Part shown: positions 13,470 through 41,057 of the stretch, one piece after another | Position numbering within the stretch: the first letter of the stretch is position 1 | How the letters are laid out: each line of letters opens with the position of its first letter | NCBI GenBank assembly: GCA_018822435.1 | Contig: JAHJKD010000050.1 | Coordinates: forward strand, 1,531-65,530 | DNA length: 64,000 bases | From: Patescibacteria group bacterium | GTDB lineage: Bacteria; Patescibacteriota; Patescibacteriia; UBA9570; JAHJKD01 | Direction of reading: 5' to 3' | Made by a program: the position numbers and the translations under genes | The notes under the pieces: generated by a model | Database searches by the model: none | The model's input: only the letters and a program-made list of their open reading frames with translations | What the model was told of the DNA's origin: nothing

Positions 13470-14203
13470 TAGGAATCTTTGACTCCGGTTTAGGAGGATT
13501 AGGAATTTTCAAAAAAATCAAAGCCATGCTTCCGGATGAGGATATTTATTATTATGGCGATACCGCTAATATCCCTTATGGTGAAAAATCTCCAGACGAA
13601 TTAAAAGGCCTGATTACTGCTGGCTTAAAATATTTAGAAAAAAAAGGCGTGAATATTATTGTAATTGCCTGTAACACGGCTTCTGTTTTGGATACTACTT
13701 ATTTTCGCCGCCAAGTTAAAATTCCAGTTGTTGCGGTCGTACCGGTTATAAAAACTGCTTCCAATCAGTCAAGAAATAATAAGATCGCCTTGCTGTCCAC
13801 TAAAGCCACCGCCATAAGCCCTTACACGGATTACCTTATAGAAGAATTCGCCCCAGAAGCCGAGGTCAAAAAAATTGCCTGCTCTGGCTGGGTTGAAGCG
13901 ATTGAAAAAGGCAAGGTCTCTGACCACCGTTTAAATTCTTGCCTAAAAAAGGTCGATGAAGAAGACGTTGTCGTGCTCGGTTGCACCCACTACACTCTTA
14001 TCAAAGGCGATATCCAAAGATTGCTCGGTCCCAATAAAATCCTCCTTGATTCCAATGAAGCTGTCGCCCGCCAAGTTCTTCGTGTCATGAACAAAGAAAA
14101 ACTTTACCAACATATAAAAAAGCCGAGATATATTTTCGACGCTTCCGGACATAAGAAAAAATTCCAGAAAATGGTTGATAGGTATTTAGAGGAGATAGCA
14201 TAA
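13466..14203 (+). CDS. murI: Glutamate racemase
   Basis: 245-aa ORF with IGIFDSGLGGL, IACNTAS and LGCTHY motifs. Confidence 0.92.
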   Translation: MIGIFDSGLGGLGIFKKIKAMLPDEDIYYYGDTANIPYGEKSPDELKGLITAGLKYLEKKGVNIIVIACNTASVLDTTYFRRQVKIPVVAVVPVIKTASNQSRNNKIALLSTKATAISPYTDYLIEEFAPEAEVKKIACSGWVEAIEKGKVSDHRLNSCLKKVDEEDVVVLGCTHYTLIKGDIQRLLGPNKILLDSNEAVARQVLRVMNKEKLYQHIKKPRYIFDASGHKKKFQKMVDRYLEEIA

Positions 14204-14287
14204 TTTCACGCCCCCAATAAATTGGTGGCCTGAAATTATATTATAGTATATTAGCCAAGCCCCGAATTTATTCGGGGTATTGGCTAA
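14202..14287. repeat. Double-hairpin intergenic repeat, copy A
   Basis: AATTTCAcgCCCCCAATAAATTGGtGG...CCAAGCCCCGAATTTATTCGGGGTATTGG. A second copy lies at 41058-41140. It sits between convergent murI and murD. Confidence 0.8.
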
Positions 14288-14289
14288 TT

Positions 14290-15576
14290 TTATTTTATCT
14301 TTTTGACTTCCTTCACAAACTGTTCCCCTCTCATAAATTCATTCATGACCGGCAACCAAGTCAAGCCAGGCGATAACAATATCACATCGCCCTCTTCGGA
14401 AAGCTCCCAGGCCTTTTTTACCGCGTCCTTCATGTCCACGGCTTCCAGGCCGGCGGGCAGGTCCTTATTGGCGTTGCCCGGCAGTAAAATCAAGATCTTG
14501 GCTTTCTTGGCGATCTCCTGGCTGAACTGCTTCAGATCTAATCCCTTGGAATTGCCTCCGGAAATCAGGATAATGTCATTTTCAAACGCACTCAAAGCCG
14601 CCACCCCCGCGTCCGGGCTGGTCGCGGTCGTGTCATTATAAAATTCCCGGCCCTGGTGTTCCCGCACCAGTTCCAGGCGGTTAGGCACGCCCCGGAAATT
14701 CTCCACTACCTGGCGCGCCGCCTTTTTCGACACCTTAAATATATCCGCCACTCTCATGGCCGCGTCGGCATTGGCCAGATTATGCCTGCCTTTGATGTGC
14801 TTGGGCGTGAAATCGATCTCTGTAAAATAATAGCCATAGGCCGGCGTATGATGGATCATCTTGTTTACGACCGGATCACGCCGGTTCAGCACGACATAAT
14901 CATCTTCGGTCTGATTTTTTAAAATATTTTCTTTGTCTTTCCTATACTCCGCCATAGATCTATAAAAATTCAGGTGATCAGGCAGTAAATTTGTCATCAC
15001 GGCCACATTAAATCTTTCTTTCTTCAGTTCATGCAACTGGAATGAAGAAACTTCTAAAACCACAATATCTCCTTTTTTTATATCATCCACAAAATTCAGG
15101 GGCGAATTGCCGACATTGCCTCCGATCCAGACTTTGTTCTTAAATTTCTTCCTTAATATCTCATAAATCAAAAAAGTCGTGGTCGTCTTACCCCGCGTGC
15201 CGGTCACGCCTACGACTTTTACGTCCTTGTCTTTTATTTCATTGAAAAAGAGAGAGAGGTCATTCACGATCGGGGTGCCTTCTTTTCCGGCCACGGCCAG
15301 ATATTCCGAATCCCAATGCACGCCCGGGTTCCGCACTACCAGATCCCGGCCTTTAAAATCTTCTTTCCTGTGTTTGCCTAAGACTAGCTGGATATTTTTA
15401 AATTTTTTCAGCTGATTTATTGTGCTGGGGTTTAATTGCGACTTTTTTTTATGATCTGTCACAATAACGCGCGCGCCTTTTCGCGCCAAAAACCGGGCCG
15501 CGGAAAAACCAGAGCCTTTTTCAATGACCCCGAGCCCCATGACCGTGATTTTTTTATCTTTATATGAATCAATCAT
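14290..15576 (-). CDS. murD: UDP-N-acetylmuramoylalanine--D-glutamate ligase
   Basis: 428-aa ORF with Mur-ligase P-loop GVTGTRGKTTTT and a C-terminal Mur ligase domain. Confidence 0.9.
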   Translation of the reverse strand: MIDSYKDKKITVMGLGVIEKGSGFSAARFLARKGARVIVTDHKKKSQLNPSTINQLKKFKNIQLVLGKHRKEDFKGRDLVVRNPGVHWDSEYLAVAGKEGTPIVNDLSLFFNEIKDKDVKVVGVTGTRGKTTTTFLIYEILRKKFKNKVWIGGNVGNSPLNFVDDIKKGDIVVLEVSSFQLHELKKERFNVAVMTNLLPDHLNFYRSMAEYRKDKENILKNQTEDDYVVLNRRDPVVNKMIHHTPAYGYYFTEIDFTPKHIKGRHNLANADAAMRVADIFKVSKKAARQVVENFRGVPNRLELVREHQGREFYNDTTATSPDAGVAALSAFENDIILISGGNSKGLDLKQFSQEIAKKAKILILLPGNANKDLPAGLEAVDMKDAVKKAWELSEEGDVILLSPGLTWLPVMNEFMRGEQFVKEVKKIK

Positions 15577-16573
15577 TTGCTACTCCCAGGCCCACGACTT
15601 TCCTCACATTCTCCATGGTCGGCTGTGCCAGCTTGGCCGCTTCTTTAGCCCCATTCGTTAAAATCTTTTCCAGCTTAGGCTGATCATCAATATATTCTTT
15701 ATATTTTTTCTGAATCGGTTCAATAAATTCCACCACGGCTTCGGCCAGGCCTTTCTTGAAATCGCCATAACCTTTGCCCGCATATTCCTTTTCCAAAGAT
15801 TTTATATTTTTTTCCGTCACCAGCGAATAAATAGTCAACAAATTAGAAATCGCCGGTTTTTTCTCCTCGTCAAATTTCACCTCTGACCCGGAATCTGTCA
15901 CTGCCTTCATGATCTTCTTCCTGATTTTGTCCGGTTCATCGGTCATGGCAATGTAATTATTTCCACTACTCGCTGATTTGCTCATTTTTGATGTCGGATC
16001 ATCTAATCCCATAATTCTGGCGCCCACTTCCGGCAACAGTGCTTCCGGCTCTTCAAACACCTGGCCATATTTATTGTTCACTCTATGGGCAATGTCCCGT
16101 GTCAGCTCGACATGTTGTCTCTGATCTTCGCCCACTGGAACTTTATTGGTCTGATATAAAAGAATATCCGCTGCCATCAAGGCCGGATAAGTGAATAAAC
16201 CAGCATTAATATTTTGCTTATGCCTTTGTGATTTATCTTTAAATTGCGTCATGCGCTCCAATTCACCCATTTGCGTATTGCAATTCAGCACCCATGCTAA
16301 TTCTGTATGTGCTGAAACATCTGACTGCACAAATATAATCGCCTTTTTCGGATCTAATCCTGACGCCAGATAAATCGCCGCTAGTTCTCTGATATTTTTC
16401 TGCAGTTCTTCCGGCTCCTGCTGTACCGTAATCGCATGCATATCCACAATGCAAAAAATGGAAAAATATTTATCCTGTAAATCAATCCATTGTTTGATCG
16501 CACCAAGATAATTTCCTAAGTGAATTACACCGCTAGGTTGTATGCCTGAAAATACTATTTTTTTATTTGTCAT
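15569..16573 (-). CDS. trpS: Tryptophan--tRNA ligase
   Basis: The track ORF (15569..16903) carries a 110-aa extension running through the neighbouring GC island. The conserved protein starts at MTNKKIVFSGIQPSGVIHLGNYLGA (ATG 16573-16571) and contains KMSKS. Confidence 0.92.
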   Translation of the reverse strand: MTNKKIVFSGIQPSGVIHLGNYLGAIKQWIDLQDKYFSIFCIVDMHAITVQQEPEELQKNIRELAAIYLASGLDPKKAIIFVQSDVSAHTELAWVLNCNTQMGELERMTQFKDKSQRHKQNINAGLFTYPALMAADILLYQTNKVPVGEDQRQHVELTRDIAHRVNNKYGQVFEEPEALLPEVGARIMGLDDPTSKMSKSASSGNNYIAMTDEPDKIRKKIMKAVTDSGSEVKFDEEKKPAISNLLTIYSLVTEKNIKSLEKEYAGKGYGDFKKGLAEAVVEFIEPIQKKYKEYIDDQPKLEKILTNGAKEAAKLAQPTMENVRKVVGLGVAND

Positions 16574-16596
16574 AAAATAATTATACAATAAAAAAT

Positions 16597-16619
16597 ACCG
16601 TCTATCAAGCAGACTTTTT
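16597..16619 (+). terminator. Conserved hairpin family, degenerate copy 0
   Basis: ACCGTCTATCAAGCAGACT plus a T-run. It keeps the CTATCAAGC loop region of the family. Confidence 0.45.
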
Positions 16620-16690
16620 CCTTGACTATATCTCAATAAAAAGCTAAAAATACCCCACCACCCGTACCACCACCAAGGAGGAAAAAATCC

Positions 16691-16948
16691 ATGAAAGCGA
16701 GAATCATCGACCCTGGCACAAATTCTTTGGTCCTCTGGCTCATAGTCGAGGTGAATGAAGGCGAAATCGCCATCAAGCCCAGTAAAGGGGGGATCGAAGT
16801 AGCTGTGTTCGTCTCCGGCTGGTTTCCGGACACAATCATCGGGGAGACTGAGGTGCCGGAAGATTTGGTCGAGAAGGCAGTCGCCCATCTCCGGACCAAG
16901 CACGAGCTCGACCAGCTGGCCAACCAGCTCAAGGAGATCCTGCGCTGA
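16691..16948 (+). CDS. Hypothetical 85-aa protein; GC-rich island gene
   Basis: SD AAGGAGG lies 9 nt upstream. TTGACT-N17-TAAAAA(T) promoter at 16622-16651. GC-ending codons. Followed by an imperfect GC hairpin (about 16950-17000) and family hairpin copy 1. Confidence 0.6.
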   Translation: MKARIIDPGTNSLVLWLIVEVNEGEIAIKPSKGGIEVAVFVSGWFPDTIIGETEVPEDLVEKAVAHLRTKHELDQLANQLKEILR

Positions 16949-17026
16949 GTGGAGGGGGCGGGCGGCGGCTCATCAAAAAGCTGCCGTCCTCCCTCCAATC
17001 TAGTAACAATCACTTCATATAAAAAC

Positions 17027-17053
17027 GGCCCGCCTATCAAGCGAATTTTTTTT
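17027..17053 (+). terminator. Conserved hairpin family, copy 1 (right arm degenerate)
   Basis: GGCCCGCCTATCAAGCGAA followed by T8. Confidence 0.5.
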
Positions 17054-17115
17054 ATTCTTGTAAAAAAAGGATTTTTGTAGTATAAAGGAACCACCTAAGT
17101 ATTTACTTCAAACAT

Positions 17116-17934
17116 ATGAAAAAAATATTCTTATTCCCTATTCTGGGCATTTTATTATTTACTATTAATTTCTTAGCGACTCCTTCAACCAAAGCATTTA
17201 GCACCGCCACTCATCCCATAGTTATAGATAATATATTAATGGGAGGATCGGGAAATGATGTTTGGATAGATGCTTCATATGGTAAGTATTGGGATTTAAA
17301 AGGAAAAAAATACAAGTTGTATAAAATGCGTTCTTATATTGGCAAAGGTACGGGCAGTGGAATATACCAAGGCCCTCCATCCATGACAGAAATTGTGAGA
17401 ATGAAAAATAATGGGACATATCTGAATAATTTTGTGGCCATCAGAAGCAATTGGAAATTTTTCCCTCAAAAGATAAGGAAGGGCAGTAAAAAATCTCCTA
17501 CTTATAAAAAAGTTATCAAAAAAATATTACGCAGGAATGATTTAGGCCATTTAAAGCCAAAGATCAAACAAATTTACAAAGTTGACCTGGATGGTAATGG
17601 CACCAAAGAAAAAATTATTCATGCTTCCAATATTGATTTTAATAATCCAAATTACTATCAGGAAAAAAATACTTATTCAGTCGTATTTGTAAGAAAGTTA
17701 GTAAATGGAAAAAAGAAAAATATTATTTTGAGGAAAAGCTTTTACACAGAAGACGGAGATTTTGAAGACGGCCCTACATATTCGCATCGCATCCGCGCTA
17801 TCGGCGATTTTAACGGGGATGGAAGAATGGAGGTCGTAGTTGAGACAAGATACTATGAAGGAACTGGATTTTCAATCTTTGAAGTAAAAAAGAAAAAAGC
17901 CGTGCCTGTACTCAGTAACGGCTCAGGAGCATAA
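17116..17934 (+). CDS. Secreted protein with a C-terminal FG-GAP/VCBS-like repeat
   Basis: 272-aa ORF with signal peptide MKKIFLFPILGILLFTINFLATPSTKA and IGDFNGDGRMEVVVE near the C-terminus. Confidence 0.6.
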   Translation: MKKIFLFPILGILLFTINFLATPSTKAFSTATHPIVIDNILMGGSGNDVWIDASYGKYWDLKGKKYKLYKMRSYIGKGTGSGIYQGPPSMTEIVRMKNNGTYLNNFVAIRSNWKFFPQKIRKGSKKSPTYKKVIKKILRRNDLGHLKPKIKQIYKVDLDGNGTKEKIIHASNIDFNNPNYYQEKNTYSVVFVRKLVNGKKKNIILRKSFYTEDGDFEDGPTYSHRIRAIGDFNGDGRMEVVVETRYYEGTGFSIFEVKKKKAVPVLSNGSGA

Positions 17935-17946
17935 TATAAATAAAAC

Positions 17947-17971
17947 GACCCGCCTTCCAAGCGGGTCTTTT
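17947..17971 (+). terminator. Conserved hairpin family, copy 2
   Basis: GACCCGCCTTCCAAGCGGGTC plus TTTT, directly after the stop. Confidence 0.7.
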
Positions 17972-18023
17972 CTTATTTAAAAAAAATATGATATTATTAC
18001 ATTGAAAGGAATAAATTATATTT

Positions 18024-18761
18024 ATGGCAAATAATATGGAAGGGCGACGGCCAGCTCAAGAGCTGGAGTCAGCCAAAAATGTTACTAAAGAAGAGCTGGA
18101 AAAAATCGCCAAGAAAAAATTGAATTTTATGGTGAAAAAGGATGGATTAATTCTTGCTAGCTCGTTTGAAGATCTCAATTTGGGGGATGATGCCCAAGAC
18201 ACTGAAGGCAGTCCTTATGAATGGTTCCAAATCTTTGATGAAAAAGACCATCCCTACCGAATTGAAGGTAATGATGTCGTTCTTTATCGGAAGGAATGTC
18301 ATGGAAAAGGAAGAATTGAGAACGTTTATCATCGCGGCACCGATGTTTGGATAGTGAACCCAAAGAACGAACTCATGGTCCCTGTTAGAAGTGCAAAAAA
18401 AGACCTCTACTCCTCTATGGGAGACAACAGTGTAAGTGAACATAATAGCATAAGAGAGCCGTATTTAGGCACTGCCGTTAGGGGTTTCCAAGAAGAGCTT
18501 GGAATATCGGTCCCCCCTGAAGGACTATCCCTTGTGTGCAAATTTCCAGTGCATGATAAAAATCAATGGCAATGGTCTCAATATTACGTATTTCCCGATA
18601 AAGAAGGAAAATATAATCCGTCTGAAGAAGAAATAGGGGAAGTCCGCTGGATTCCCTTACAAAATTTATTTACAGAGGAAGGGATAAAAAAAATAAATTT
18701 TCGACTAGACCATTTACCCGCTCTAAAAGTATTTCTAGAAAAAATAAAAAATAAAAAATAA
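18024..18761 (+). CDS. Nudix hydrolase (IDI-like subfamily)
   Basis: 245-aa ORF with a Nudix box region GTAVRGFQEELGI and an upstream ...HRGTDVWIVNPKNELMV... layout. Confidence 0.7.
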   Translation: MANNMEGRRPAQELESAKNVTKEELEKIAKKKLNFMVKKDGLILASSFEDLNLGDDAQDTEGSPYEWFQIFDEKDHPYRIEGNDVVLYRKECHGKGRIENVYHRGTDVWIVNPKNELMVPVRSAKKDLYSSMGDNSVSEHNSIREPYLGTAVRGFQEELGISVPPEGLSLVCKFPVHDKNQWQWSQYYVFPDKEGKYNPSEEEIGEVRWIPLQNLFTEEGIKKINFRLDHLPALKVFLEKIKNKK

Positions 18762-18766
18762 AAAAA

Positions 18767-18793
18767 CGCCCGCCTATCAAGCGGGTCTTTTTT
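18767..18793 (+). terminator. Conserved hairpin family, copy 3
   Basis: CGCCCGCCTATCAAGCGGGTC followed by T6. Confidence 0.7.
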
Positions 18794-18832
18794 ATCCCTT
18801 TACATTCAGACTTTTTTTGATAAAATATCAAT

Positions 18833-19531
18833 ATGGGAGAAAAATACGAATACAATCAAAGTGGTGCAGAAGCCTACAAAGAATTAGGTATCGAGGGAAC
18901 TACATATGAAATGTCATTCTCTGAGATGAAAAGGATGCTTGGAAATATTCAAGGCATGAATTTTTTAGATTTCGGCTGCGGTTCAGGTCGTAGCGCACGA
19001 TTCCTAAAAACTCTCGGCGCTAAAAACGTCATTGGTGTTGATCATAATGAATCTATGATAAAACAGGCCAAGGCAACGGCAGTACAAGGGATTGATTTCA
19101 GGCTGATCAAAGAAAAAATTCCTCTAGACGATGATTCCGTTGACGGCGTAATTAGTTCAGCAGTTTTCTTAGAAATAAAAAATTTGGCTGATATGGAAAA
19201 AACGGCCAGGGAAATTGCCCGAGTTCTCAAGCCCGGTGGCGTATTCATACTAGTTACCGTAAATCCGGACGCCTTCGGGCATGATTTTGTAAGTTTTACC
19301 AGAACAGGAAACCCTGCAGAACTCGAAAGCGGCGATATGACTGAATGCCGGATGAAAGGAAAAAAACCATTTGTAATAGATGATATATTCTGGACCGAAG
19401 ACGATTATAGACAAGTGCTTGAATCAGCCGGTTTTACCATCGAAGATATTGTTTTCCCGAAAGCAGAATCAGGTAATTGGCTGGATGAAACAAATGTCGC
19501 ACCTGATATGGTCATAAAAGCAACAAAATAA
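18833..19531 (+). CDS. Class I SAM-dependent methyltransferase
   Basis: 232-aa ORF with motif I FLDFGCGSGR and a later LKPGGVFILV. The promoter TTTACA-N16-(TGa)TAAAAT ends 6 nt before the ATG, so the mRNA is possibly leaderless. Confidence 0.8.
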   Translation: MGEKYEYNQSGAEAYKELGIEGTTYEMSFSEMKRMLGNIQGMNFLDFGCGSGRSARFLKTLGAKNVIGVDHNESMIKQAKATAVQGIDFRLIKEKIPLDDDSVDGVISSAVFLEIKNLADMEKTAREIARVLKPGGVFILVTVNPDAFGHDFVSFTRTGNPAELESGDMTECRMKGKKPFVIDDIFWTEDDYRQVLESAGFTIEDIVFPKAESGNWLDETNVAPDMVIKATK

Positions 19532-19534
19532 AAC

Positions 19535-19561
19535 GACCCGCCTATCAAGCGGGTCTTTTTT
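19535..19561 (+). terminator. Conserved hairpin family, copy 4
   Basis: GACCCGCCTATCAAGCGGGTC followed by T6. Confidence 0.7.
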
Positions 19562-19614
19562 AATTTTTTAACCACTTCTTCTGAACACCAAAATTTGATA
19601 TACAAAAGAAGGGG

Positions 19615-19646
19615 CGGGGGCATGGTTCTTGCGAACGCAGCCCCCG
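19615..19646 (-). terminator. GC hairpin terminator of 19678..19923
   Basis: On the minus strand, CGGGGGC-18 nt-GCCCCCG is followed by CCCCTTCTTTTGTAT. Confidence 0.5.
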
Positions 19647-19677
19647 TTTGATCCCGTAAACTACCGAAGCATCCACG

Positions 19678-19923
19678 TCACTCTTCATCCTCGTCCTTCG
19701 TATCCTCCTCTTCTTTTTCCTCATTTTTTTCCTGAACAAGACGTGCGATGCTTTCAGGAATCTGACTGACTAGTAAACCTAAGAAGAAAAGAGACAGTGC
19801 TATAGCCATACAAAGCACGACAATCGCAACCTCTGCGTTCCCATTGAAAACACATATGCAAGCCAAACCAGAAGAGAGGAAAAAAGTAGCCATCCATAAA
19901 GGGAATACGATACTTTTTGTCAT
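19678..19923 (-). CDS. Small membrane protein (81 aa, two predicted TM helices, acidic tail); GC-rich island gene
   Basis: SD AGGAGG lies 5-6 nt upstream of the ATG. Two hydrophobic stretches, FPLWMATFFLSSGLACICVF and VAIVVLCMAIALSLFFLGLLV, are followed by an EEKEEEDTKDEDEE tail. Confidence 0.6.
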   Translation of the reverse strand: MTKSIVFPLWMATFFLSSGLACICVFNGNAEVAIVVLCMAIALSLFFLGLLVSQIPESIARLVQEKNEEKEEEDTKDEDEE

Positions 19924-20023
19924 GGTAACCTCCTAATAGGTGGATGAAGTTGTTAACGGTCGCCTGTTCCGGATTCGCCGGCAACTTATTTTGCCGACTA
20001 AATCACTAGATACAGGATAGGCG

Positions 20024-20052
20024 ACCTTACCATTTCAGCGATCCCTTGTCAA
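20024..20052 (-). promoter_or_regulatory. Sigma70-like promoter for 19678..19923
   Basis: Minus strand TTGACA (20052-20047), 17-nt spacer, TAAGGT (20029-20024). About 100 nt of GC-rich 5' UTR follows. Confidence 0.4.
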
Positions 20053-20085
20053 TAGTCGCTCTTGAATAATTATTATCAATAAAAA

Positions 20086-20110
20086 CACCCGCCTATCAAG
20101 CGGGTCTTTT
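20086..20110 (+). terminator. Conserved hairpin family, copy 5 (no plus-strand gene precedes it)
   Basis: CACCCGCCTATCAAGCGGGTC plus TTTT. Confidence 0.6.
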
Positions 20111-20168
20111 CTTTAATAAAAATAATATTTCTGATATATTTAATCATATCTAGATAAATAAACATTTT

Positions 20169-20639
20169 ATGCCACAAAATAATTCAAGACCAGCTAAAAA
20201 ACCTTTTACGGAAAACGAACAAGTTCTTCTAAGGAATAAAGCAATTGATAAAATCAAAGACCTTTTTCTGCCTAATGATAAAATTCTGAAAATAATTCTT
20301 ATTGGATCTTCTGTGAAGGGATCTTTTGGGGAATATGGACCGCCCGGTTTCAGAAACAGCCTATTTTCTGATTTTGATTTCATTTTCTTTGTAAAAGACG
20401 ATTATGAAATTCCTGATTGGTTAAAAAAAGAACCGTCGGGAAAACCTTTCACTGACGACAGTCTTAATCTTGCCTATCGCAACGCAAAAATGGTCGACGA
20501 TAAATATGATATCGAATTTTTCTTTATCAGGGAAGAGAATCTGGATGATAATAATTTTATCGAAGAAGGAGAAGGGGCAGGCATTCCTTTGAAAAAGAAT
20601 TCAAAAATTGAACATCTGACTATTTTTGAAAAAAAATAA
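20169..20639 (+). CDS. Nucleotidyltransferase-fold protein (Pol-beta/MNT-like)
   Basis: 156-aa ORF with LIGSSVKGSFG...SDFDFIFFV, matching the GS-x(n)-DxD pattern. Confidence 0.65.
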   Translation: MPQNNSRPAKKPFTENEQVLLRNKAIDKIKDLFLPNDKILKIILIGSSVKGSFGEYGPPGFRNSLFSDFDFIFFVKDDYEIPDWLKKEPSGKPFTDDSLNLAYRNAKMVDDKYDIEFFFIREENLDDNNFIEEGEGAGIPLKKNSKIEHLTIFEKK

Positions 20640-20643
20640 AAAC

Positions 20644-20670
20644 GATCCGCCTATCAAGCGGGTCTTTTTT
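20644..20670 (+). terminator. Conserved hairpin family, copy 6
   Basis: GATCCGCCTATCAAGCGGGTC followed by T6. Confidence 0.7.
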
Positions 20671-20696
20671 ATTTAAAGTAATTTTAGAAAAATAGT

Positions 20697-20722
20697 GGGA
20701 CTGAATGTAAGGATTCAGTCCC
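20697..20722 (-). terminator. GC hairpin terminator of 20758..21156
   Basis: GGGACTGAAT-GTAAGG-ATTCAGTCCC (10-bp perfect stem), followed on the minus strand by ACTATTTTTCT. Confidence 0.6.
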
Positions 20723-20757
20723 GGGGGAAACAACCGCGCCTTACCGCGGGTGCGACG

Positions 20758-21156
20758 CTAGGCCACTTCGTCGAAGTAGTCCCAGCGCGCCTCATCGATC
20801 TCCTCCACGACCGCCTCGCACATCATGTAGATCATGACGTCGCGCAGCGTGATGTGAGCGGAATGGTCGACGTTGCACTCGAAACCGCAGTAGCACTCAC
20901 AGCAAGATTCCTCGCGGACACCGACGATGCCTCTAGCGGTCTGATCCAGATCCAGCCCATCCAGCATCATGTCCTCGGTGTAGCGGAACAGGACGGCGTC
21001 GGTCATATCCGACGCGCGACCGTAAGCCGCCCGCCAGGTCGAGTCCGTCTCCTTCCACCAGTGATCCGGGCCGAAATGGTCCATGATCCGGCGAGCGAGC
21101 CGCTCGATCAGGTAGGAGGAATCATGCCGGTTACCCTTTTGTTGTACGTTCATCAC
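20758..21156 (-). CDS. Hypothetical acidic 131/132-aa protein; GC-rich island gene
   Basis: SD AAGGAG lies 7 nt upstream of the ATG at 21153 (a GTG at 21156 is also possible). GC-ending codons and a Cys-rich patch CCECYCGFEC. No family recognised. The plus ORF 20695..21264 is a shadow. Confidence 0.6.
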   Translation of the reverse strand: MMNVQQKGNRHDSSYLIERLARRIMDHFGPDHWWKETDSTWRAAYGRASDMTDAVLFRYTEDMMLDGLDLDQTARGIVGVREESCCECYCGFECNVDHSAHITLRDVMIYMMCEAVVEEIDEARWDYFDEVA

Positions 21157-21232
21157 GTATCTCCTTTCAGGAGTTTTACCGCACCTGCTCCATGCAGGAC
21201 GGCGATGGCAATGCCATCATTGAGGGTCAATC

Positions 21233-21261
21233 TGTATATCACATTTTTTCAATTTTGTCAA
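21233..21261 (-). promoter_or_regulatory. Sigma70-like promoter for 20758..21156
   Basis: Minus strand TTGACA (21261-21256), 17-nt spacer, TATACA (21238-21233). Confidence 0.4.
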
Positions 21262-21279
21262 TAGTAATCCATAAAAATA

Positions 21280-21308
21280 TTGACAAATTCTATAATATTT
21301 GCTAATAT
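21280..21308 (+). promoter_or_regulatory. Sigma70-like promoter for 21343..22083
   Basis: TTGACA (21280-21285), 17-nt spacer, TAATAT (21303-21308). Confidence 0.5.
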
Positions 21309-21337
21309 TTACATAGGTTTACATAGGTTTACATAGA
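21308..21337 (+). repeat. Three tandem 10-bp direct repeats (candidate operator)
   Basis: TTTACATAGG TTTACATAGG TTTACATAGA, between the -10 box and the ATG at 21343. Confidence 0.85.
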
Positions 21338-21342
21338 TTATT

Positions 21343-22083
21343 ATGAAAGAAAAATTACATTCAATCGGAGAAACAGCTAACATTATTGGAGTTTCTATTG
21401 ATACTCTACGAAAATGGGATAAAAAAGGCATTTTGCCTTCTTTTCGACCTTCACCTACCAGTAAAAGATACTATCGCCAAGAAGATATTGATGCTTTTTT
21501 AGCAAAAGAAACCCAACTAGATCTGAAATCCATGGCTGAAAAATGGGCCATTGATCCATCTCCTTCTCCCCTGTCCCCGGAATTATATTGCCAGACAAGC
21601 GATGTTTTTCATGCTCGCCTGCAACATCTAGAGGTAGAAATAGCCCGCGTACCTAAATTAAAAGATATTTTTCCCTTAATCGTCGCTGTTATTGGTGAAA
21701 TCGGCAATAATTCTTTCAACCATAACATTGGCAATTGGCCGGATGAGCCAGGCATATTTTTTGGATACGACCTAAAAAACCGCCAAGCTGTTCTGGCTGA
21801 CCGAGGCCAAGGCATCTTAAAAACTCTGAAGCGTGTAGTGCCGGATTTGAAAAACGACCAAACTGCCCTAAAAGTTGCTTTCACCGAATATATTTCCGGC
21901 CGCGCCCCCGAAGACAGGGGCAATGGCCTGAAATTCGTCCGGGACGTAGTGACGGAAAATCCGATACAGCTAAAATTCTTTACCGGTGAGGCGCAACTGG
22001 AGTTAGAACAAAATACAGCTGATTTAGATATTAAAAAAAGCGATCTTTCCTTCCATGGCTGCATCGCCATAATAAATTTCTAA
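21343..22083 (+). CDS. MerR-type HTH fused to a GHKL (RsbW/SpoIIAB-like) ATPase/kinase domain
   Basis: 246-aa ORF. N-terminus IGETANIIGVSIDTLRKWDKKGIL...YYRQEDID is a MerR-type HTH. C-terminus has an N-box-like EIGNNSFNH, a G1-like DRGQGI and a G2-like GNGLKF. Confidence 0.7.
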   Translation: MKEKLHSIGETANIIGVSIDTLRKWDKKGILPSFRPSPTSKRYYRQEDIDAFLAKETQLDLKSMAEKWAIDPSPSPLSPELYCQTSDVFHARLQHLEVEIARVPKLKDIFPLIVAVIGEIGNNSFNHNIGNWPDEPGIFFGYDLKNRQAVLADRGQGILKTLKRVVPDLKNDQTALKVAFTEYISGRAPEDRGNGLKFVRDVVTENPIQLKFFTGEAQLELEQNTADLDIKKSDLSFHGCIAIINF

Positions 22084-22100
22084 CATCCTAATCCTATACT

Positions 22101-22385
22101 ATGAATATTTATCTAAAAAAATTTGGTACTACTCTCGTTTCCCGGCCGGCCGGCAAAGAGGCTTGGCTCGCGCTCCAACCCAATCTTAAGGAATTAGAAG
22201 AAAACGAAAAAATAATTATTGATTTCAAAGGCGTGGCCGTGCTTACCCCTTCCTGGGCGGATGAAGTCGTCTCACCTTTAAAAGACAATTTTCAAAATCA
22301 GATCAGTCTGATAAATACGGAAAATCCGTCTGTCCAAGCCACATTAACTACACTAAAAAAAGCAAAGCAAGACCAAAAATCTTAG
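22101..22385 (+). CDS. STAS-like (DUF4325-type) protein
   Basis: 94-aa ORF. Its size and the pattern ...SRPAGKEAW...IIIDFKGV..LTPSWADEV... match the STAS-like DUF4325 family as I recall it. It lies 18 nt downstream of the GHKL gene. Confidence 0.55.
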   Translation: MNIYLKKFGTTLVSRPAGKEAWLALQPNLKELEENEKIIIDFKGVAVLTPSWADEVVSPLKDNFQNQISLINTENPSVQATLTTLKKAKQDQKS

Positions 22386-22466
22386 TAAAAATTAAAATTT
22401 TATTAATATTTGAATCCATCTATTGATACAATGTATACAAACTTTCTTAGATGTACATGAAAAATA

Positions 22467-22493
22467 ATTCCGCCGTTCAAGCGGGTCTTTTTT
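22467..22493 (+). terminator. Conserved hairpin family, variant copy 7
   Basis: ATTCCGCCGTTCAAGCGGGTC followed by T6. Confidence 0.5.
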
Positions 22494-22547
22494 GACTTAT
22501 CTATGCAAATTGCTATAAAATAGAATAGTAAACAAAAAAATAATTTC

Positions 22548-23021
22548 ATGAACAAGCAAGAAGCCCGAAGACCGACTCCTGAAAAACAAGAAATAAAAAA
22601 AGTTGAAATTGGCAATCTCGATGAGTTTGATATGGATTATTTCCACCAATTAGAGGGCGAAGACGGTTGGATCGCTATAGGACAAGATAATTGCCAAAAC
22701 CAAAAATATTTCACTCTAGGAGGAACAGAAGGAGACAAACTAGGAATAATCGGTGTTTTTGACACGGATGAAGATTCAAATATCACCCACACTGTAATTG
22801 ATCCAAAATTCCGTGGTCAAAGGCTGGCCAGCCGAGCCAAGCACGAATTGATGGACAAACTGAATCTGCCTTTTATTACTATGATAATAGATTTGGATAA
22901 TCTTCCCTCTATCAAAGCGACAGAAAAAATCCCTGGCGTTAAAAGAGTGAGCGATGATACTTATGAAGAAGAATTTCATAAGGTCAAACTTGTTTATGAA
23001 AAACCTCCAACAAATACCTAA
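22548..23021 (+). CDS. Putative GNAT-family acetyltransferase
   Basis: 157-aa ORF. VIDPKFRGQRLASRAKHELMDKL resembles GNAT motif A. Weak call. Confidence 0.45.
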   Translation: MNKQEARRPTPEKQEIKKVEIGNLDEFDMDYFHQLEGEDGWIAIGQDNCQNQKYFTLGGTEGDKLGIIGVFDTDEDSNITHTVIDPKFRGQRLASRAKHELMDKLNLPFITMIIDLDNLPSIKATEKIPGVKRVSDDTYEEEFHKVKLVYEKPPTNT

Positions 23022-29783: not shown

Positions 29784-31583
29784 TTAAACTTCAATAACGA
29801 CCGGGAGTATCATGGGACGTCTTTCAGTTTTCTTGAATAAAAATTTTCCAATTTCATCCCGAAGCTTATTTTTCAAATACATCGGATTGGCTGCATCTTG
29901 GGGATTTTTATCCTTAGCGACTTCTCTTACTTTTTTTCGCGTATCCTCAATAAGATTTTTACTGCCTTTCATATATATAAAGCCGCGGGAAATAATATCA
30001 GGTGATCCGATCAATTCCCCGGTTTGTGCCGATACAGTCACGATCACGACAAACATGCCGTCATCGGCCATAACTTGCCTATCTCTTAAGACTACATTAG
30101 AAACGTCGCCCACGCCAAGACCGTCAACCATAACATAGTCAGTATCGACTTTATCTTTGGTCATCCTGCCTTCACCACCAGAAAATTCCATAACCTGGCC
30201 ATTTTTAGTAATAAAGACATGGTCTTTGTCCCAGCCCAGGCCTTCTGCCACCTTAGCCGCCGCATGCATCATGAATTGATTACCCATGATCGGAATAATA
30301 TATTTCGGCTTGATCAAAGTGTAAAGCAGTTTCAGGTCTTCTTCTTTAGCATGACCGCCGGCATGCACATCCATCATTTTATAATGGATAACATTGGCGC
30401 CTTCTTTTACTAAAGTGTCTTTTAGCCTTTGTACAGTTCTTTCATTTCCAGGAATGACTGAAGATGAAAACACGACTGTATCGCCCGGTTGGATCCGGAA
30501 ATATTTATGTTCCTTGCCGGCAATACGCATTAGAGCGGCATTGCCTTCGCCCTGGGCACCAGTACACATAATAATAACTTTATTATCAGGCAGCTTACTC
30601 GCTTCGGCTGAAGAAACGAATGTATTAGGTTTGGCTTTCAGATAGCCTAGCTCACGGCAGAGGGCCACGTTTGTTTTCATAGAATAGCCTTCCACCGTAA
30701 TCTTCCGTCCATACTTTTCCGCATCCCACACAATCTGCTGGACACGGGTAAGTAAAGATGCAAATGTACCGACAATTACCCGGCCTTCAGCATCTTTAAT
30801 AATATTTTCCAGAGTCTCCCCAATCGTCTTTTCTGATTCCTGATGGCCGGCTTGGTCAGCATTAGTCGAATCTGAAAACAGGGCCAGTACGCCTTCAGTG
30901 CCTAGGCGGGCAATTTTATCAAACTCCGCCACTTTATCCATGACTGGAGTATAATCAAATTTGAAATCACCGGTGTGAACCAATGTTCCTTCTGGCGTAT
31001 GCACAATTATGCCGACACAATCCGGGATATTATGGTTGACGCGAAAAAATTCTACGCGAAAAGCGCCTAGTTCCAATTCCGCATCTGGATTGATCTCTCT
31101 CGTATCAAGACTGCCTTTACCGGCAAAATCTTCCTGGCGCTTATCAATAATGCCCAGCGTCAATTTTGTGCCATAAATTGGGGGGTTCTTCAGACTAGGC
31201 GCGATATGCGGAATCCCGCCAATATGGTCGAGATGGCCATGCGTGATAATAATGCCTTTAACATTTTTTTCCTTGCCTTTTAAGTAGTTCATGTTCGGAA
31301 TGATGTAATCAATTCCGGGCTGATCCTCTTCAGGAAATTGCAAACCACAATCAATCATGATGATGTCATCACCGTACTCGATTAATGTCATGTTGCGGCC
31401 GACTTCTTCGGCTCCTCCCATGATCATGACTTTCAGCTTGGCACCACGCCGGCCTTTTGCCATTGTTGTCGGCCTTTTTTGTCCGCGCTGGAAAGTTCTA
31501 TTTGATTTTGTCCTGTTCTTGACCACTATGGTCTTACGCCTTTTTGGCGAATGACCTTTATAGGTCTTCTTCTTTGGTGTCAT
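29784..31583 (-). CDS. rnj: Ribonuclease J
   Basis: 599-aa ORF with metallo-beta-lactamase motif ITHGHLDHIGG, beta-CASP and a C-terminal domain. A basic N-terminal extension is present. Confidence 0.9.
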   Translation of the reverse strand: MTPKKKTYKGHSPKRRKTIVVKNRTKSNRTFQRGQKRPTTMAKGRRGAKLKVMIMGGAEEVGRNMTLIEYGDDIIMIDCGLQFPEEDQPGIDYIIPNMNYLKGKEKNVKGIIITHGHLDHIGGIPHIAPSLKNPPIYGTKLTLGIIDKRQEDFAGKGSLDTREINPDAELELGAFRVEFFRVNHNIPDCVGIIVHTPEGTLVHTGDFKFDYTPVMDKVAEFDKIARLGTEGVLALFSDSTNADQAGHQESEKTIGETLENIIKDAEGRVIVGTFASLLTRVQQIVWDAEKYGRKITVEGYSMKTNVALCRELGYLKAKPNTFVSSAEASKLPDNKVIIMCTGAQGEGNAALMRIAGKEHKYFRIQPGDTVVFSSSVIPGNERTVQRLKDTLVKEGANVIHYKMMDVHAGGHAKEEDLKLLYTLIKPKYIIPIMGNQFMMHAAAKVAEGLGWDKDHVFITKNGQVMEFSGGEGRMTKDKVDTDYVMVDGLGVGDVSNVVLRDRQVMADDGMFVVIVTVSAQTGELIGSPDIISRGFIYMKGSKNLIEDTRKKVREVAKDKNPQDAANPMYLKNKLRDEIGKFLFKKTERRPMILPVVIEV

Positions 31584-35272: not shown

Positions 35273-37366
35273 ATGGCAAATACGAAAAAAATCAATCCAA
35301 TTTTATATCCGCTGAATCCGAAACAGCAAGAAGCCGCTTCCGTGAATGAAGGGCCGGTTTTAATTTTGGCCGGCGCCGGTTCTGGCAAGACAAAAACACT
35401 GGTCCACCGCATTGCCAACCTCATCGCCGCTTACAAAGTTAAGCCTTGGAATATTCTGGCTGTCACTTTCACCAATAAAGCGGCTGGAGAAATAAAAGAA
35501 CGCGTGCAAAAGCTGATCGGCAAGAAATACAAGCATCTTCCTGCTATGGGTACTTTTCATTCCATCTGCGTCCGCATTTTAAGGCAGGAAATTGAGATAC
35601 TAGGCTACAAAAAGAACTATAATATTTTTGATTCTCATGACTCTCTGTCACTTATTAAGAAAGTCATGAAAGATCTGAACATCGATATTAAGCAAGTTAA
35701 TCCTCGGGCGATCGCGGCCATCATTTCTAATGCCAAAAACGAATTAATAGGGCCTGATGAGTATGCCGGACAAGCAAAAGGCTATATGGAACAAATGGTT
35801 GTAAAGGTCTATCCCGAATATCAGCGCCAGTTAAAAGACGCCAACTCGCTTGATTTTGACGACCTGATCATGAAAACCGTCCAGATTTTCCAGCAATATC
35901 CCGAAGTTTTAAAAAAATATCAGAATCTTTGGCATTATATATTAGTAGATGAGTATCAGGACACTAATCATGCCCAATACTTGTTCATTAAATTATTAGC
36001 CGAAGAAAAGAAAAACATTTGTGCCATAGGCGATGATTATCAGTCTATTTACGCCTTCCGCGGCGCAAATTACCAAAACATCCTGGATTTTGAAGATACA
36101 TTTGAAGATACAAAAACTGTTTATTTAGAGCAGAACTATCGTTCCACGCAAAATATTCTTGATACTGCTAACGAAATTATCAGTCATAATAAAAACCAAA
36201 AAGACAAAAAACTTTGGACAGAAAACCCCAAAGGCGACCGCGTCGTGGTTAAGGAGGTTCATGACGAAATCGACGAAGGCGAATATATTATTAAGTCTAT
36301 CTTTGGAATTGACGATGTAGGGGTCCGGAATTCTGAACCCGATCCCGACAGTGAAATAACTTATGAACCAGAAGAGCCCCAACACCAAACCATTCTAGAA
36401 AAAGTTATGGCTTCTAAAACTTTCCAAGAAAGACAAGAAGACAAAGATATATTAAATGCCGTGGAAAAATCTCTTAAAAAAACTGACTTATCCCAGTACG
36501 TAATTTTATACCGCACTAATGCCCAGTCCCGCGCCTTAGAAGAGTCTTTCTTAAAATATGGGATTCCCTATCGCATTATCGGCGGCATCAAGTTTTACGA
36601 AAGAAAAGAAATCAAAGACGTCCTCGCTTTCATGCGCGTCCTTTCCAATCCCTTGGACTGGGTCGCCCTGGAAAGATTGATCAATGTCCCTCCGCGCGGC
36701 GTTGGCCAAAAATCCTGGTTGAAAATTGAACGCGCCTGCCGCGATGCTGGGAAGACATATTTAGAAATAACTCCTAATGAAACTCCGGATGTGACTACTC
36801 GTTCCCGCCAAGGTTTTTTTATCTTTCAGGAAGCTATGAAAGAAATTGATGCCAAAAAAGAAAAATTAAATCCCACGGAAATATTAGACCTAATAGTAAA
36901 CAAGACTGGAATGAAGGCCTTTCTTAAAGATGGCAGTGAAGAGGGAGAAAGACGATGGGAAAATATCATGGAATTAAAAACTGTCACAAAAAAATACTTC
37001 GGCCAAAAAGGCCAGAAATCTTTAGAGGCATTTTTAGAGGAAGTCGCTCTAATATCTGATCAAGATAATATTGATGAAAAAGCCAAGGCCGTCAACATGA
37101 TGACGATTCATGCCGCCAAAGGCCTGGAATTTCCTAATGTATTTTTAGCGGGCATGGAAGAAGGCTTGTTCCCTCATTCCCGTTCTTTGTTTGAACCTAA
37201 AGAAATGGAAGAAGAACGCCGCCTCTGCTACGTCGCCCTCACCCGCGCCCGGGAAAAACTGAATTTAATTTATACATCACAACGGACTGTTTACGGCAAT
37301 ACGCAAATAAACGCTCCGTCAAGATTTATTGACGATCTTCCCAAAGAAAATATTGAAATGCGGTAA
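35273..37366 (+). CDS. pcrA: ATP-dependent DNA helicase PcrA/UvrD (SF1)
   Basis: 697-aa ORF with Walker A AGAGSGKT, DEYQDTN, QNYRST and later helicase motifs. Confidence 0.92.
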   Translation: MANTKKINPILYPLNPKQQEAASVNEGPVLILAGAGSGKTKTLVHRIANLIAAYKVKPWNILAVTFTNKAAGEIKERVQKLIGKKYKHLPAMGTFHSICVRILRQEIEILGYKKNYNIFDSHDSLSLIKKVMKDLNIDIKQVNPRAIAAIISNAKNELIGPDEYAGQAKGYMEQMVVKVYPEYQRQLKDANSLDFDDLIMKTVQIFQQYPEVLKKYQNLWHYILVDEYQDTNHAQYLFIKLLAEEKKNICAIGDDYQSIYAFRGANYQNILDFEDTFEDTKTVYLEQNYRSTQNILDTANEIISHNKNQKDKKLWTENPKGDRVVVKEVHDEIDEGEYIIKSIFGIDDVGVRNSEPDPDSEITYEPEEPQHQTILEKVMASKTFQERQEDKDILNAVEKSLKKTDLSQYVILYRTNAQSRALEESFLKYGIPYRIIGGIKFYERKEIKDVLAFMRVLSNPLDWVALERLINVPPRGVGQKSWLKIERACRDAGKTYLEITPNETPDVTTRSRQGFFIFQEAMKEIDAKKEKLNPTEILDLIVNKTGMKAFLKDGSEEGERRWENIMELKTVTKKYFGQKGQKSLEAFLEEVALISDQDNIDEKAKAVNMMTIHAAKGLEFPNVFLAGMEEGLFPHSRSLFEPKEMEEERRLCYVALTRAREKLNLIYTSQRTVYGNTQINAPSRFIDDLPKENIEMR

Positions 37367-37407: not shown

Positions 37408-37413
37408 TTATTT

Positions 37414-41024: not shown

Positions 41025-41057
41025 AATTTAATTATAGCAATATCTCTTTCCAAAACA

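Follow-up and report, generated by a model that had tools for sequence, protein, structure and literature searches.

Island C, the interval 19605–20055 of the 64-kb stretch of DNA analysed here (the window), is best explained as an ordinary autonomous monocistronic unit whose leader acts as a constitutive 5′ stem-loop mRNA stabiliser, an explanation that we judge about evenly poised between right and wrong. A sigma-70-type promoter would produce a leader of ~95 nt, followed by a strong Shine-Dalgarno (SD) sequence, the gene of an 81-aa two-helix membrane protein and a series of 3′ hairpins. This series ends with copy 4 of a hairpin array, which can be read as a bidirectional terminator. The unit fills one slot of a species-specific array of eight units, each ended by a 34-nt hairpin terminator. 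The leader hairpin, located 2 nt from the predicted 5′ end, would shield the mRNA from 5′-end-dependent decay, and RNase J is encoded in the same window (29784–31583). The leader would also leave the SD accessible, in a genome whose genes mostly have none. Judged by the 5′ stem-loops of E. coli and B. subtilis mRNAs, on which it is modelled, stabilisation is the most likely role of the leader; this role, the terminator roles and the transcription start are predicted from the sequence. The leader is probably not a ligand-sensing riboswitch. One element is unaccounted for by the stabiliser model, namely the dual complementarity of AUGGUAAGGUCGCCU to AGGCGACC and to the start codon region. Our analysis supports the first-pass description of a small membrane-protein unit that is self-contained and faces the opposite way to its surroundings, starts from its own promoter with a structured leader, and has a hairpin on either side.

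Expression signals and the leader RNA

All expression signals of the unit are on the minus strand. The proximal promoter-like site (20024–20052) is composed of TTGACA (20047–20052), a 17-nt spacer and TAAGGT (20024–20029), with a TG at 20031–20032 that gives TGn before the −10 box. Because TAAGGT matches the consensus at only three of six positions, the site is absent from the consensus-scanner list. Its −35 context, ACTATTGACAA, is identical in islands C and D, and aside from this context no leader motif is common to the SD-led genes. Transcription is predicted to start at ~20018, ~6 nt after the −10 box. An alternative promoter-like site is located upstream (20072–20099) and consists of TTGATA, 16 nt and GATAAT, which gives 10 of 12 matches in the consensus scan; in the minus-strand reading, its TTGATA is the loop of hairpin copy 5. 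The SD, AGGAGG (19929–19934), is placed 5 nt before the ATG with a duplex energy of −10.9 kcal/mol. A comparable SD precedes only ~6 of the 57 genes of the window. The genome of the window is mostly without ribosome-binding sites, and the SD and long leader of island C are exceptional there. The few long-leader, SD-led genes of this genome comprise GC-rich imports, the island C unit and one further gene of host-like GC content (55857–56186).

If transcription starts ~6 nt after the −10 box, the leader spans ~95 nt (19924–20018) and folds with a minimum free energy (MFE) of −27.4 (z −2.26). It contains an irregular hairpin (19963–20016; MFE −23.2 kcal/mol, z −3.29, equalled by one of 200 shuffles), which is closed by CCUGU/ACAGG and continues as GAUUU-A-GUCGGCAA / UUGCCGGC-GAAUC around the loop AAUAAG. 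The hairpin begins 2 nt from the predicted 5′ end and adopts the same structure in the fold of the full leader. In the centroid structure of the leader folded from the predicted start, the SD is unpaired. The leader thus folds better than its shuffles, with z values of about −2.3 to −3.3, and after GC correction it ranks 248th among 12,778 windows of 116 nt (top 2%). Its folded structure is real, and nothing shows that it senses a ligand or a signal.

The promoter TTGACA-N17-TAAGGT, the SD before the ATG and the nested leader helices are all present where the first-pass annotation placed them. Each listed helix exists as a sequence, but not all of them can coexist. CGGCAA/TTGCCG and CCGG/CCGG overlap in CCG, and CCTGT/ACAGG and the outer helix GGTCGCCT/AGGCGACC overlap in AGG. 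The outer helix corresponds to an 8-bp inverted repeat taken from the inverted-repeat listing, with the 3′ arm AGGCGACC at 19958–19965 and the 5′ arm GGUCGCCU at 20019–20026 (both in minus-strand letters). The 5′ arm extends into the −10 box and is upstream of the start that the proximal promoter would give (~20018). The longest of the proposed helices would lose its 5′ arm in this way, and the hairpin at 19963–20016 remains inside the predicted RNA. In a separate comparison, an 8-nt match between the leader (GATAGGCG) and one hairpin half (CGCCTATC) was judged compatible with chance.

A rival reading takes the leader as a regulatory RNA, be it a riboswitch, thermometer or two-transcript switch. 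Here, long transcripts, initiated at the promoter embedded in hairpin copy 5 or arising from read-through, would hide the start codon, and the short transcript would be translatable. Including the upstream arm, the leader folds at −35.8 kcal/mol (z −3.08 relative to shuffles), and a 152-nt extended form folds at −45.1 kcal/mol (z −2.98); in this form, the MFE and centroid structures both pair the AUG. A transcript from the upstream promoter-like site would hold the full outer helix and would also cover its start codon by pairing AUGGUAA with UUACCAU; AUGGUAAGGUCGCCU, 15 nt long, is complementary to both AGGCGACC and that UUACCAU. The 10/12 score of the upstream site and the rarity of long SD-led leaders in this genome point in the same direction. 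On the other hand, the complementarity was noticed post hoc, the fold places the leader no higher than the top 2% of the window, and the leader is a simple irregular hairpin with no multi-helix junction. Rfam at the gathering threshold reports only two tRNAs in the whole window. With the cutoff relaxed to E ≤ 10 for 16400–22700, Rfam 15 again has no match to the leader (19924–20030), and all weak matches fall on terminator hairpins. No homologue of the gene or the locus was found in any collection searched, and there is hence no covariation support for the helices. We consider a regulatory RNA unlikely.

The 81-aa protein and its transcript

The ORF at 19678–19923 on the minus strand (NCBI KKC88_04455, hypothetical protein) encodes 81 residues with two transmembrane helices, in agreement with the first-pass annotation, and an acidic C-terminal helix. 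The two hydrophobic segments cover residues ~5–26 and ~32–53, and the acidic tail of 28 residues has a net charge of −9. In the single-sequence AlphaFold2 model (mean pLDDT 82), helices are formed by residues 3–26, 30–53, and 57–78. A permissive PROSITE-type lipobox pattern matches residues 1–22 (...SGLA-C22); the −3 position is not Leu, Val or Ile, and a second helix follows.

The stop codon is directly followed by 3′ UTR hairpin 1 (19655–19677, minus strand), which has a UUCG loop. The unit's own GC-rich terminator-like hairpin (19604–19645, minus strand) consists of GGGGGC...GCCCCC (19616–19645), 5 nt and then UUCUUUU (19604–19610). Hairpin 3, CCCCUUCUUUUG...CAGAAGAAGUGG (19573–19614, minus strand), is present in both the fold and the inverted-repeat listing, as is the GC-rich hairpin. 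Folding of 19525–19690 (minus strand) gives an MFE of −63.3 kcal/mol with a z value of −5.27, and the 3′ UTR is therefore far more structured than the leader. The term "GC island" used in the first-pass annotation suits only these untranslated parts: the whole interval 19605–20055 has a GC content of 0.459, with 0.587 in the 3′ UTR part and 0.46 in the leader, but the ORF, at 0.415, does not differ from the window at 0.414.

The 81-aa protein is a strict orphan in the collections searched. It retrieved only itself in a word-indexed search of 5.8 billion proteins and in a full HMMER scan of 1.84 billion representatives. Pfam, PADLOC and NCBIfam gave nothing meaningful, and the sole PHROGs match is weak (phrog_12129, function unknown, E 0.0023). 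The protein has no similarity to the small two-helix ORF of the cassette-like contig L088, and blastn of island C against phages and plasmids returned no match.

The small hydrophobic protein, the heavily structured 5′ and 3′ untranslated regions, and a promoter of its own in an orientation opposite to most neighbours would suit a type I toxin-antitoxin-like module, or a small toxic membrane-peptide module, in which the untranslated regions would restrict translation and an antisense RNA would act as repressor. Such a module could stabilise the array in the way of toxin-antitoxin cassettes in chromosomal integrons, and promoter-bearing cassettes of this kind are known from sedentary chromosomal integrons (PMC13108822). 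Several observations make this assignment improbable. PADLOC, Pfam and NCBIfam gave no hit, the short transcript does not strongly sequester its SD, and a plus-strand promoter-like site for an antisense RNA was not found within 19560–20045 by a consensus scan, which may miss an unusual promoter. In addition, type I toxins usually have fewer than 60 residues and one helix, for which a protein of 81 residues, two helices and an acidic tail of 28 residues is atypical.

Could the frame be fortuitous, and the locus a decayed remnant or the site of a non-coding RNA? The absence of relatives among the 5.8 billion and 1.84 billion proteins would agree with this, as would the weak codon-model score of 0.023 bits/codon, compared with 0.14–0.41 for most neighbours. 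(The scores of islands A and D are 0.128 and 0.029.) Moreover, all contigs on record are identical, with the two compared loci alike base for base, and provide no pattern of synonymous and non-synonymous substitutions. Opposed to these points are the perfect SD spacing in a genome that hardly uses SDs, the coherent arrangement of promoter, ORF and terminator, and the confident helical-hairpin model. The annotated frame also scores best of all six under the host codon model, with a host-like GC3 of 0.40. We find a fortuitous frame unlikely. From the SD, the frame score, the predicted helices and the agreement of the NCBI and Logan gene callers, both of which call the ORF, we infer that it is a real gene, whose protein is probably made.

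The hairpin array around the unit

The array adjoins trpS, beginning at the trpS promoter, and holds unrelated genes between its hairpin copies. Eight copies, all in the same orientation and each ending one array unit, lie within 16588–22493. Their conserved unit of ~34 nt, AAAACGACCCGCCTATCAAGCGGGTCTTTT, has a perfect 6–7-bp stem and a conserved loop, with flanks that are not conserved. The family is far above chance, with six matches where 0.01 are expected. No further copy was found in the rest of the window (the other 58 kb), among relatives or in the public collections covered, and the exact hairpin 21-mer had zero matches in genome and metagenome collections. One match of the hairpin 18-mer in viral contigs, a single copy without A/T tracts, was judged to be chance.

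Measured between the starts of copies 4 and 5, the slot of island C is 551 nt long; its neighbours are a methyltransferase gene and a nucleotidyltransferase gene. Copy 4 (AAAACGACCCGCCTATCAAGCGGGTCTTTTTT, 19528–19561) is terminator-shaped on both strands (plus, 19535–19555; minus, 19555–19535), and is predicted to end both the methyltransferase gene on the plus strand and the 81-aa transcript on the minus strand. Copy 5 (20079–20112) closes the slot with the inverted unit. The scanner lists both copies as terminator-like, with a GC-rich stem-loop and a T run, on both strands. As the first-pass annotation had noted, the two copies flank the unit, and copy 5 is downstream of no plus-strand gene.

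Every plus-strand unit of the array seems to have its own promoter. Islands A and D share the layout of island C, which comprises a −35 TTGAC(A/T), a hairpin leader, an AGGAGG-type SD (AGGAG in island D) and an own GC-rich terminator; therefore, the common layout looks like a generic expression module. The leader hairpins of island D are kept in its homologues via compensatory changes, a positive control for the covariation test. The closest relative found, whose TrpS is 83% identical, has only trpS and murD in common with the window, and carries neither the array nor a hairpin beside trpS. A search via the exact flanking proteins revealed no insert-free variant, and all contigs on record have the same arrangement.

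A far-reaching interpretation takes island C as a cassette of an undescribed gene-capture array. The 34-nt hairpin would be the recombination site of a recombinase encoded elsewhere, imports would bring −35/SD modules to a largely SD-less, leaderless genome, and the leader would be a new translational switch, in which the pairing of AUGGUAAGGUCGCCU with AGGCGACC and the start codon would silence read-through transcripts of a potentially toxic membrane peptide. We regard this combination as very unlikely. If the hairpin were a recombination site, it would be an attC-like site much smaller than any known.

The first-pass annotation had suggested that the duplication of copies 4 and 5 was related to insertion; the island would have inserted beside a single pre-existing hairpin, and the two copies would be a target-site duplication. 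Their 33 nt in common at 94% identity and the lack of a plus-strand gene before copy 5 fit such an event. However, these are two of eight array copies, with such a hairpin in every unit, and they are not the nearest pair: in a 47-nt comparison, copy 4 is nearest to copy 6 (39/47) and copy 5 to copy 2 (38/47), while copies 4 and 5 agree at 33/47. With no terminal inverted repeats bounding island C, no transposase gene in the window and no insert-free variant on record, an insertion duplication is highly unlikely, and the suggestion was not upheld. A transposable element or MITE was likewise rejected, as there are no terminal inverted repeats, the flanking hairpins are not a specific pair, and no other copy occurs in the collections searched. 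Least probable is a DNA operator at GGTCGCCT/AGGCGACC, where a repressor would block the promoter at its −10 box: the inverted repeat is perfect over 8 bp, and one arm covers −10 to +1 and is not part of the RNA made from the proximal promoter, but a gap of 53 bp separates the two arms, much more than in the palindromes that dimeric repressors bind, the unit has no regulator gene, and no second instance of the motif occurs in the array.

Taken alone, island C matters little, being another orphan gene for a small membrane protein with orderly expression signals. The array and the mostly SD-less genome are the more interesting context: at a local landing zone, this uncultured Patescibacteria genome carries single-gene units that each end in a hairpin. 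The few SD-led long-leader genes bear on how foreign genes are expressed where most mRNAs are leaderless or SD-less.

Comparison with known systems

Like integron cassettes, the array units are short, unrelated genes, most of them in one orientation, with a copy of one palindromic repeat after each; some have their own promoter and the opposite orientation, and the content is foreign, variable and missing from the closest relative. The repeats are different. An attC site is an imperfect palindrome of 55–140 nt with RYYYAAC/GTTRRRY cores, whereas the array repeat is a 34-nt perfect-stem terminator hairpin with no GTTRRRY core. An integron also has IntI and attI at the array end, and there is no integrase gene in the 64 kb, where no gene has a recombinase or transposase domain. 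Integron cassettes are mostly promoterless, in contrast to the plus-strand units of the array, each of which seems promoter-bearing. The integron assignment was hence rejected on attC and IntI/attI, although the variable co-oriented cassettes and the repeat agree with it. A literature search on integrons or leaderless translation in Patescibacteria/CPR yielded nothing pertinent. Compared with REP/BIME elements, the array hairpin is similarly a short palindrome of ~34 nt at gene 3′ ends and terminator-like, but its eight copies are clustered in 6 kb in one orientation, the other 58 kb lack it, and the window encodes nothing RAYT-like.

Phage morons are autonomous promoter-gene-terminator units inserted between genes. 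Island C resembles them as a self-contained small-gene unit between unrelated genes with expression signals unlike those of its neighbours; it differs in that it is not in a prophage (the flanks include trpS, murD and RNase J) and in the host-like GC content of its ORF. Small hydrophobic bacterial proteins include the type I toxins Hok, TisB, and Fst as well as class II holins. With this group, island C shares a small hydrophobic helical protein and an mRNA with long structured untranslated regions, and with class II holins also the two helices and the charged C-terminus. The 81-aa protein is longer than type I toxins and has an acidic rather than basic tail, and beyond the weak phrog_12129 match, neither an antisense promoter nor an adjacent lysin gene nor sequence similarity was found. 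Despite the compatible topology, a class II holin was rejected in view of the methyltransferase and nucleotidyltransferase neighbours and the only weak PHROG match.

For the preferred reading, a leader that stabilises the mRNA, the relevant models are the 5′-terminal stem-loop stabilisers of the E. coli ompA leader and the B. subtilis aprE and ermC leaders. The island C leader has no sequence relationship to any of them and its 5′ end is predicted; the analogy is one of mechanism only. Like these leaders, island C would place a stable hairpin a few nucleotides from its predicted 5′ end and leave the SD region behind it unstructured, in a genome that encodes RNase J.

Island C and its predicted product

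Island C is a minus-strand unit built around an 81-aa open reading frame, which is present at 19678-19923 as claimed in the first-pass annotation. The promoter and Shine-Dalgarno (SD) sequence proposed there were likewise recovered: TTGACA (20047-20052) is separated by 17 nt from TAAGGT (20024-20029), with TGn before the -10 box, and AGGAGG (19929-19934) lies 5 nt upstream of ATG. The other features listed in that annotation also lie where it placed them, and its interpretation is partly borne out. Its description as a GC island is marginal: the interval 19605-20055 has GC 0.459, but enrichment is limited to the 3' UTR (19603-19677, 0.587) and the leader (0.46), the ORF being host-like at 0.415; the GC of the window is 0.414. 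The GC3 of the ORF (0.40) equals that of host genes, unlike islands A and D, two neighboring GC-rich small-gene units.

Hydropathy places membrane-length segments at residues ~5-26 and ~32-53, in agreement with the predicted two-TM protein, and the C-terminal tail has a net charge of -9. Single-sequence AlphaFold2 modeling gives helices 3-26, 30-53, and 57-78 (mean pLDDT 82). The topology is probably N-in/C-in with the acidic helix cytoplasmic. A permissive lipobox pattern matches the protein up to Cys22. The protein finds only itself in a 5.8-billion-protein index and in a full HMMER scan of 1.84 billion cluster representatives, and has no match in Pfam or PADLOC. NCBIfam returns one match far under cut-off (E 0.0037; 17 bits vs 170), PHROGs one weak match to a 79-residue family of unknown function (E 0.0023), and blastn of island C against phage and plasmid records no match. 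The window sequence is also contig JAHIYR010000040.1 of MAG GCA_018814995.1, labeled 'Patescibacteria group bacterium', and a Logan assembly of SRR2544004 carries an identical copy (0 differences over 15.7 kb). The arrangement is identical in all contigs having the exact flanking proteins.

The hairpin array and its expression units

Island C is contained in a 6-kb array bounded by trpS (15569-16573, minus strand) and a GNAT/AHSA1/TPR gene group. The array element is 34 nt long, with consensus AAAACGACCCGCCTATCAAGCGGGTCTTTTTT and conserved loop CTATCAA. Its eight copies (c1-c8), all in one orientation, start at 16588, 17020, 17940, 18760, 19528, 20079, 20637, and 22460, and span 16588-22493. 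A 19-mer with up to three mismatches found six matches against 0.01 expected by chance, and the other 58 kb of the 64-kb window holds no copy. Every copy has an intrinsic-terminator shape; a terminator scan scores most of them on both strands. The genes in between are short and unrelated to one another; in order, they encode an orphan of 85 aa, a protein of 272 aa whose N-terminus is signal-like, a NUDIX protein, a SAM methyltransferase, the 81-aa protein, a nucleotidyltransferase-like protein, the GC-rich 131-aa protein, a MerR-type protein, and a DUF4325 protein. Neither integrase or transposase domains nor a recombinase gene were found among the genes of the window. The exact hairpin is absent from GTDB representative genomes and JGI metagenomes, and it was not found in the neighborhoods of trpS homologues (80 loci); the nearest relative, whose TrpS is 83% identical, has only trpS and murD in common and is without the array.

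Each plus-strand array unit has its own promoter-like site directly after the preceding hairpin. The degenerate copy 1 overlaps the trpS promoter (16573-16621), and its loop on the minus strand is the trpS -35 box TTGATA, with a 17-nt spacer to TATAAT and 6 nt from there to ATG (leaderless). Read on this strand, the loops of all copies are TTGATA-like. Elsewhere, phage-like remnant genes at 46466-49901 (Bro-N domain, HTH_17 excisionase-like, and two unknown-function proteins) adjoin tRNA-Met (49829-49901).

With a cut-off of -9 kcal/mol, an SD-like duplex precedes about six of the 57 genes in the window, namely 3475-4332, island A (16691-16948), island C, island D, 52592-52888, and 55857-56186. 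Four of them (3475-4332, islands A and D, and 52592-52888) are GC-rich (0.56-0.60) and apparently imports. No such duplex precedes housekeeping genes, among them groEL, recA, ftsK, uvrA, and the RNase J gene. A TATAAT-like box, often TGnTATAAT, ends 6-11 nt (mostly 6-8) before ATG in ~15 of the 57 genes, as in trpS (TTGATA-17-TATAAT, 6 nt, ATG); this is how leaderless mRNAs are arranged. Given the few SD sites and the leaderless-like host genes, the 95-nt leader of island C with its AGGAGG is unusual in this genome.

Islands A, C, and D have a common layout, with a -35 box TTGAC(A/T), a hairpin leader, and an own GC-rich terminator. The SD is AGGAGG in island A and AGGAG in island D, and islands C and D share the same -35 context, ACTATTGACAA. 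The 85-aa ORF of island A is compositionally foreign (GC3 0.73), and the 5.8-billion-protein search likewise finds no relative of its protein. Promoter-like boxes TTGACT-18-TAAAAA were read by eye there, the promoter scan listing the overlapping hexamer AAAAAT; the island also carries AAGGAGG and its own long GC-rich hairpin. The Cys-rich 131-aa protein gene of island D (20758-21156) is likewise compositionally foreign (GC3 0.80), and its module (20690-21300) comprises a promoter, a two-hairpin leader, an SD, and a double terminator. Three homologues of 55-66% identity lie on short metagenome contigs (L088:165-700; L090:1-476; L089:1-409). L088 and L090, which include the upstream region, keep the promoter, the leader, and both leader hairpins, in L088 via compensatory changes. 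One hairpin changes between GATGGCA/TGCCATC and GATGGAA/TTCCATC, the second between CCG..CTGC/GCAG..CGG and CAG..CCGC/GCGG..CTG. The island D leader thus seems to be a conserved, structured element. As promoter and leader are kept in two homologues, island D is a portable expression module. Island C is alike in layout, but its ORF is host-like in composition and without relatives.

Contig L088 (1-1530) is AT-rich with secA at its end, and the island D homologue lies amid three copies of a ~110-nt repeat. This repeat, TCTTTCCCGGCAATTTACTACAACGTTTGC ... GCTGTTGTRG, has cross-complementary halves, an attC-like feature; between two such halves, the opposite strand carries a two-helix ORF of 67 aa. 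In the window, a 10-nt sequence, TTTACATAGG, is directly repeated three times in tandem (21307-21336; last copy ending in A) just ahead of the MerR-type gene at 21343. The repeats adjoin a 27-nt inverted repeat (21237-21263 / 21278-21304) carrying two divergent TTGACA boxes, and the region may be an operator region. This MerR/HATPase-like 246-aa gene (21343-22083) is called in the Logan assembly and absent from the NCBI annotation of the same sequence.

Leader folding and proposed working of island C

The leader helices listed in the first-pass annotation are all present, but they overlap. UUGCCG and the first CCGG have CCG in common, and ACAGG and AGGCGACC have AGG in common; hence, the helices are alternatives rather than a single structure. 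The 5' arm of the outer helix, an 8-bp inverted repeat (20019-20026 / 19958-19965), sits between the -10 box and the expected start at ~20018, and would not be transcribed from the promoter named there. On the minus strand, 19915-20030, with the outer arm included, folds at -35.8 kcal/mol (z -3.08), the 104-nt segment from the predicted start at -27.4 kcal/mol (z -2.26; 2/200 shuffles as good), the segment from 20012 at -22.6 kcal/mol (z -1.87), and the 5' hairpin alone (19955-20018) at -23.2 kcal/mol (z -3.29). When every 116-nt window of either strand was scanned with GC correction, the best one in the leader came 248th of 12,778 (z -2.3), so the leader is structured but not exceptional. The 3' UTR (19525-19690, minus strand; -63.3 kcal/mol, z -5.27) is far more structured, with four successive hairpins, the last being copy 4 on the minus strand. 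Rfam at gathering score yields two tRNAs only in the whole window; at E<=10 the leader has no match, and weak matches all fall on terminator hairpins. The top-folding 116-nt windows (GC-corrected z -4.2 to -7.5) are 56161-56320, 43981-44140, 41031-41170, 14181-14300, 52451-52590, and 37291-37420. Probably long terminator hairpins, all of them are at or near gene ends or in intergenic gaps, and none was picked up in the searches for the array hairpin family.

We propose that a sigma-70-type promoter fires at ~20018, and that the RNA would open with a stable irregular hairpin (19963-20016) 2 nt from its 5' end, followed in the centroid structure by ~30 mostly unpaired nt and an accessible SD. 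Translation would yield the 81-aa helical-hairpin membrane protein, and termination would occur at the unit's own GGGGGC...GCCCCC hairpin and U-rich tail, with c4 as a backup. Hairpins at the extreme 5' end guard mRNAs against 5'-end-dependent decay in E. coli and B. subtilis. Since such protection is known and the organism encodes RNase J, we favor the leader as a putative constitutive stabilizer and translation enabler rather than a sensor.

It is unlikely that the leader is a regulatory RNA by which long transcripts are silenced. A TTGATA-16-GATAAT site from the c5 loop is a possible further upstream start, and the 5' extension AUGGUAAGGUCGCCU would then pair with AGGCGACC and, over the start codon, with UUACCAU; this pairing is suggestive but was found post hoc. 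A type I-toxin-like module, which the untranslated regions and hydrophobic product would fit, is just as improbable, as the size and acidic tail of the protein do not fit and the promoter scan found no antisense promoter-like site. Slightly less probable again is a spurious 81-aa ORF: its orphan status and weak codon score leave some room for this, but the SD is perfect although the genome has few, and promoter, ORF, and terminators are coherently laid out, which speaks against it.

Insertion of island C with duplication of the hairpin is very improbable. Copies 4 and 5 were claimed to be near-identical, and they do have 33 nt in common at 94% identity; however, the insertion-related duplication drawn from this is not supported. 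Over 47 nt centered on the loop, c4 matches c5 at only 33 positions, being nearest c6 (39/47), then c2 (38) and c3 (37), while c5 is nearest c2 (38); the relationships among copies do not pair the two. No terminal inverted repeats were found around island C. A simpler description is that the inverted unit fills one array slot, 551 nt from copy 4 start to copy 5 start, and that the hairpin to its right is the one closing every slot, whatever the gene orientation. The inverted repeat as a DNA operator is the least probable reading, its arms being 53 bp apart and no regulator gene being present.

Comparison with known systems

The layout of the hairpin array is like that of an integron cassette array or CALIN, and promoter-bearing cassettes are known in integron arrays (PMC13108822). 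Because it has neither an attC-type site nor IntI, the array lacks what defines an integron. In its autonomy, island C is comparable to a phage moron, except that it is not within a prophage. The array hairpins are similar to REP elements, yet clustered and co-oriented. By this comparison, island C is classed as an orphan representative of a known kind of unit, the autonomous small membrane-protein gene whose leader is structured, and is itself of less interest than the array that the hairpins delimit and the way SD-led imports stand out from a leaderless-like host.
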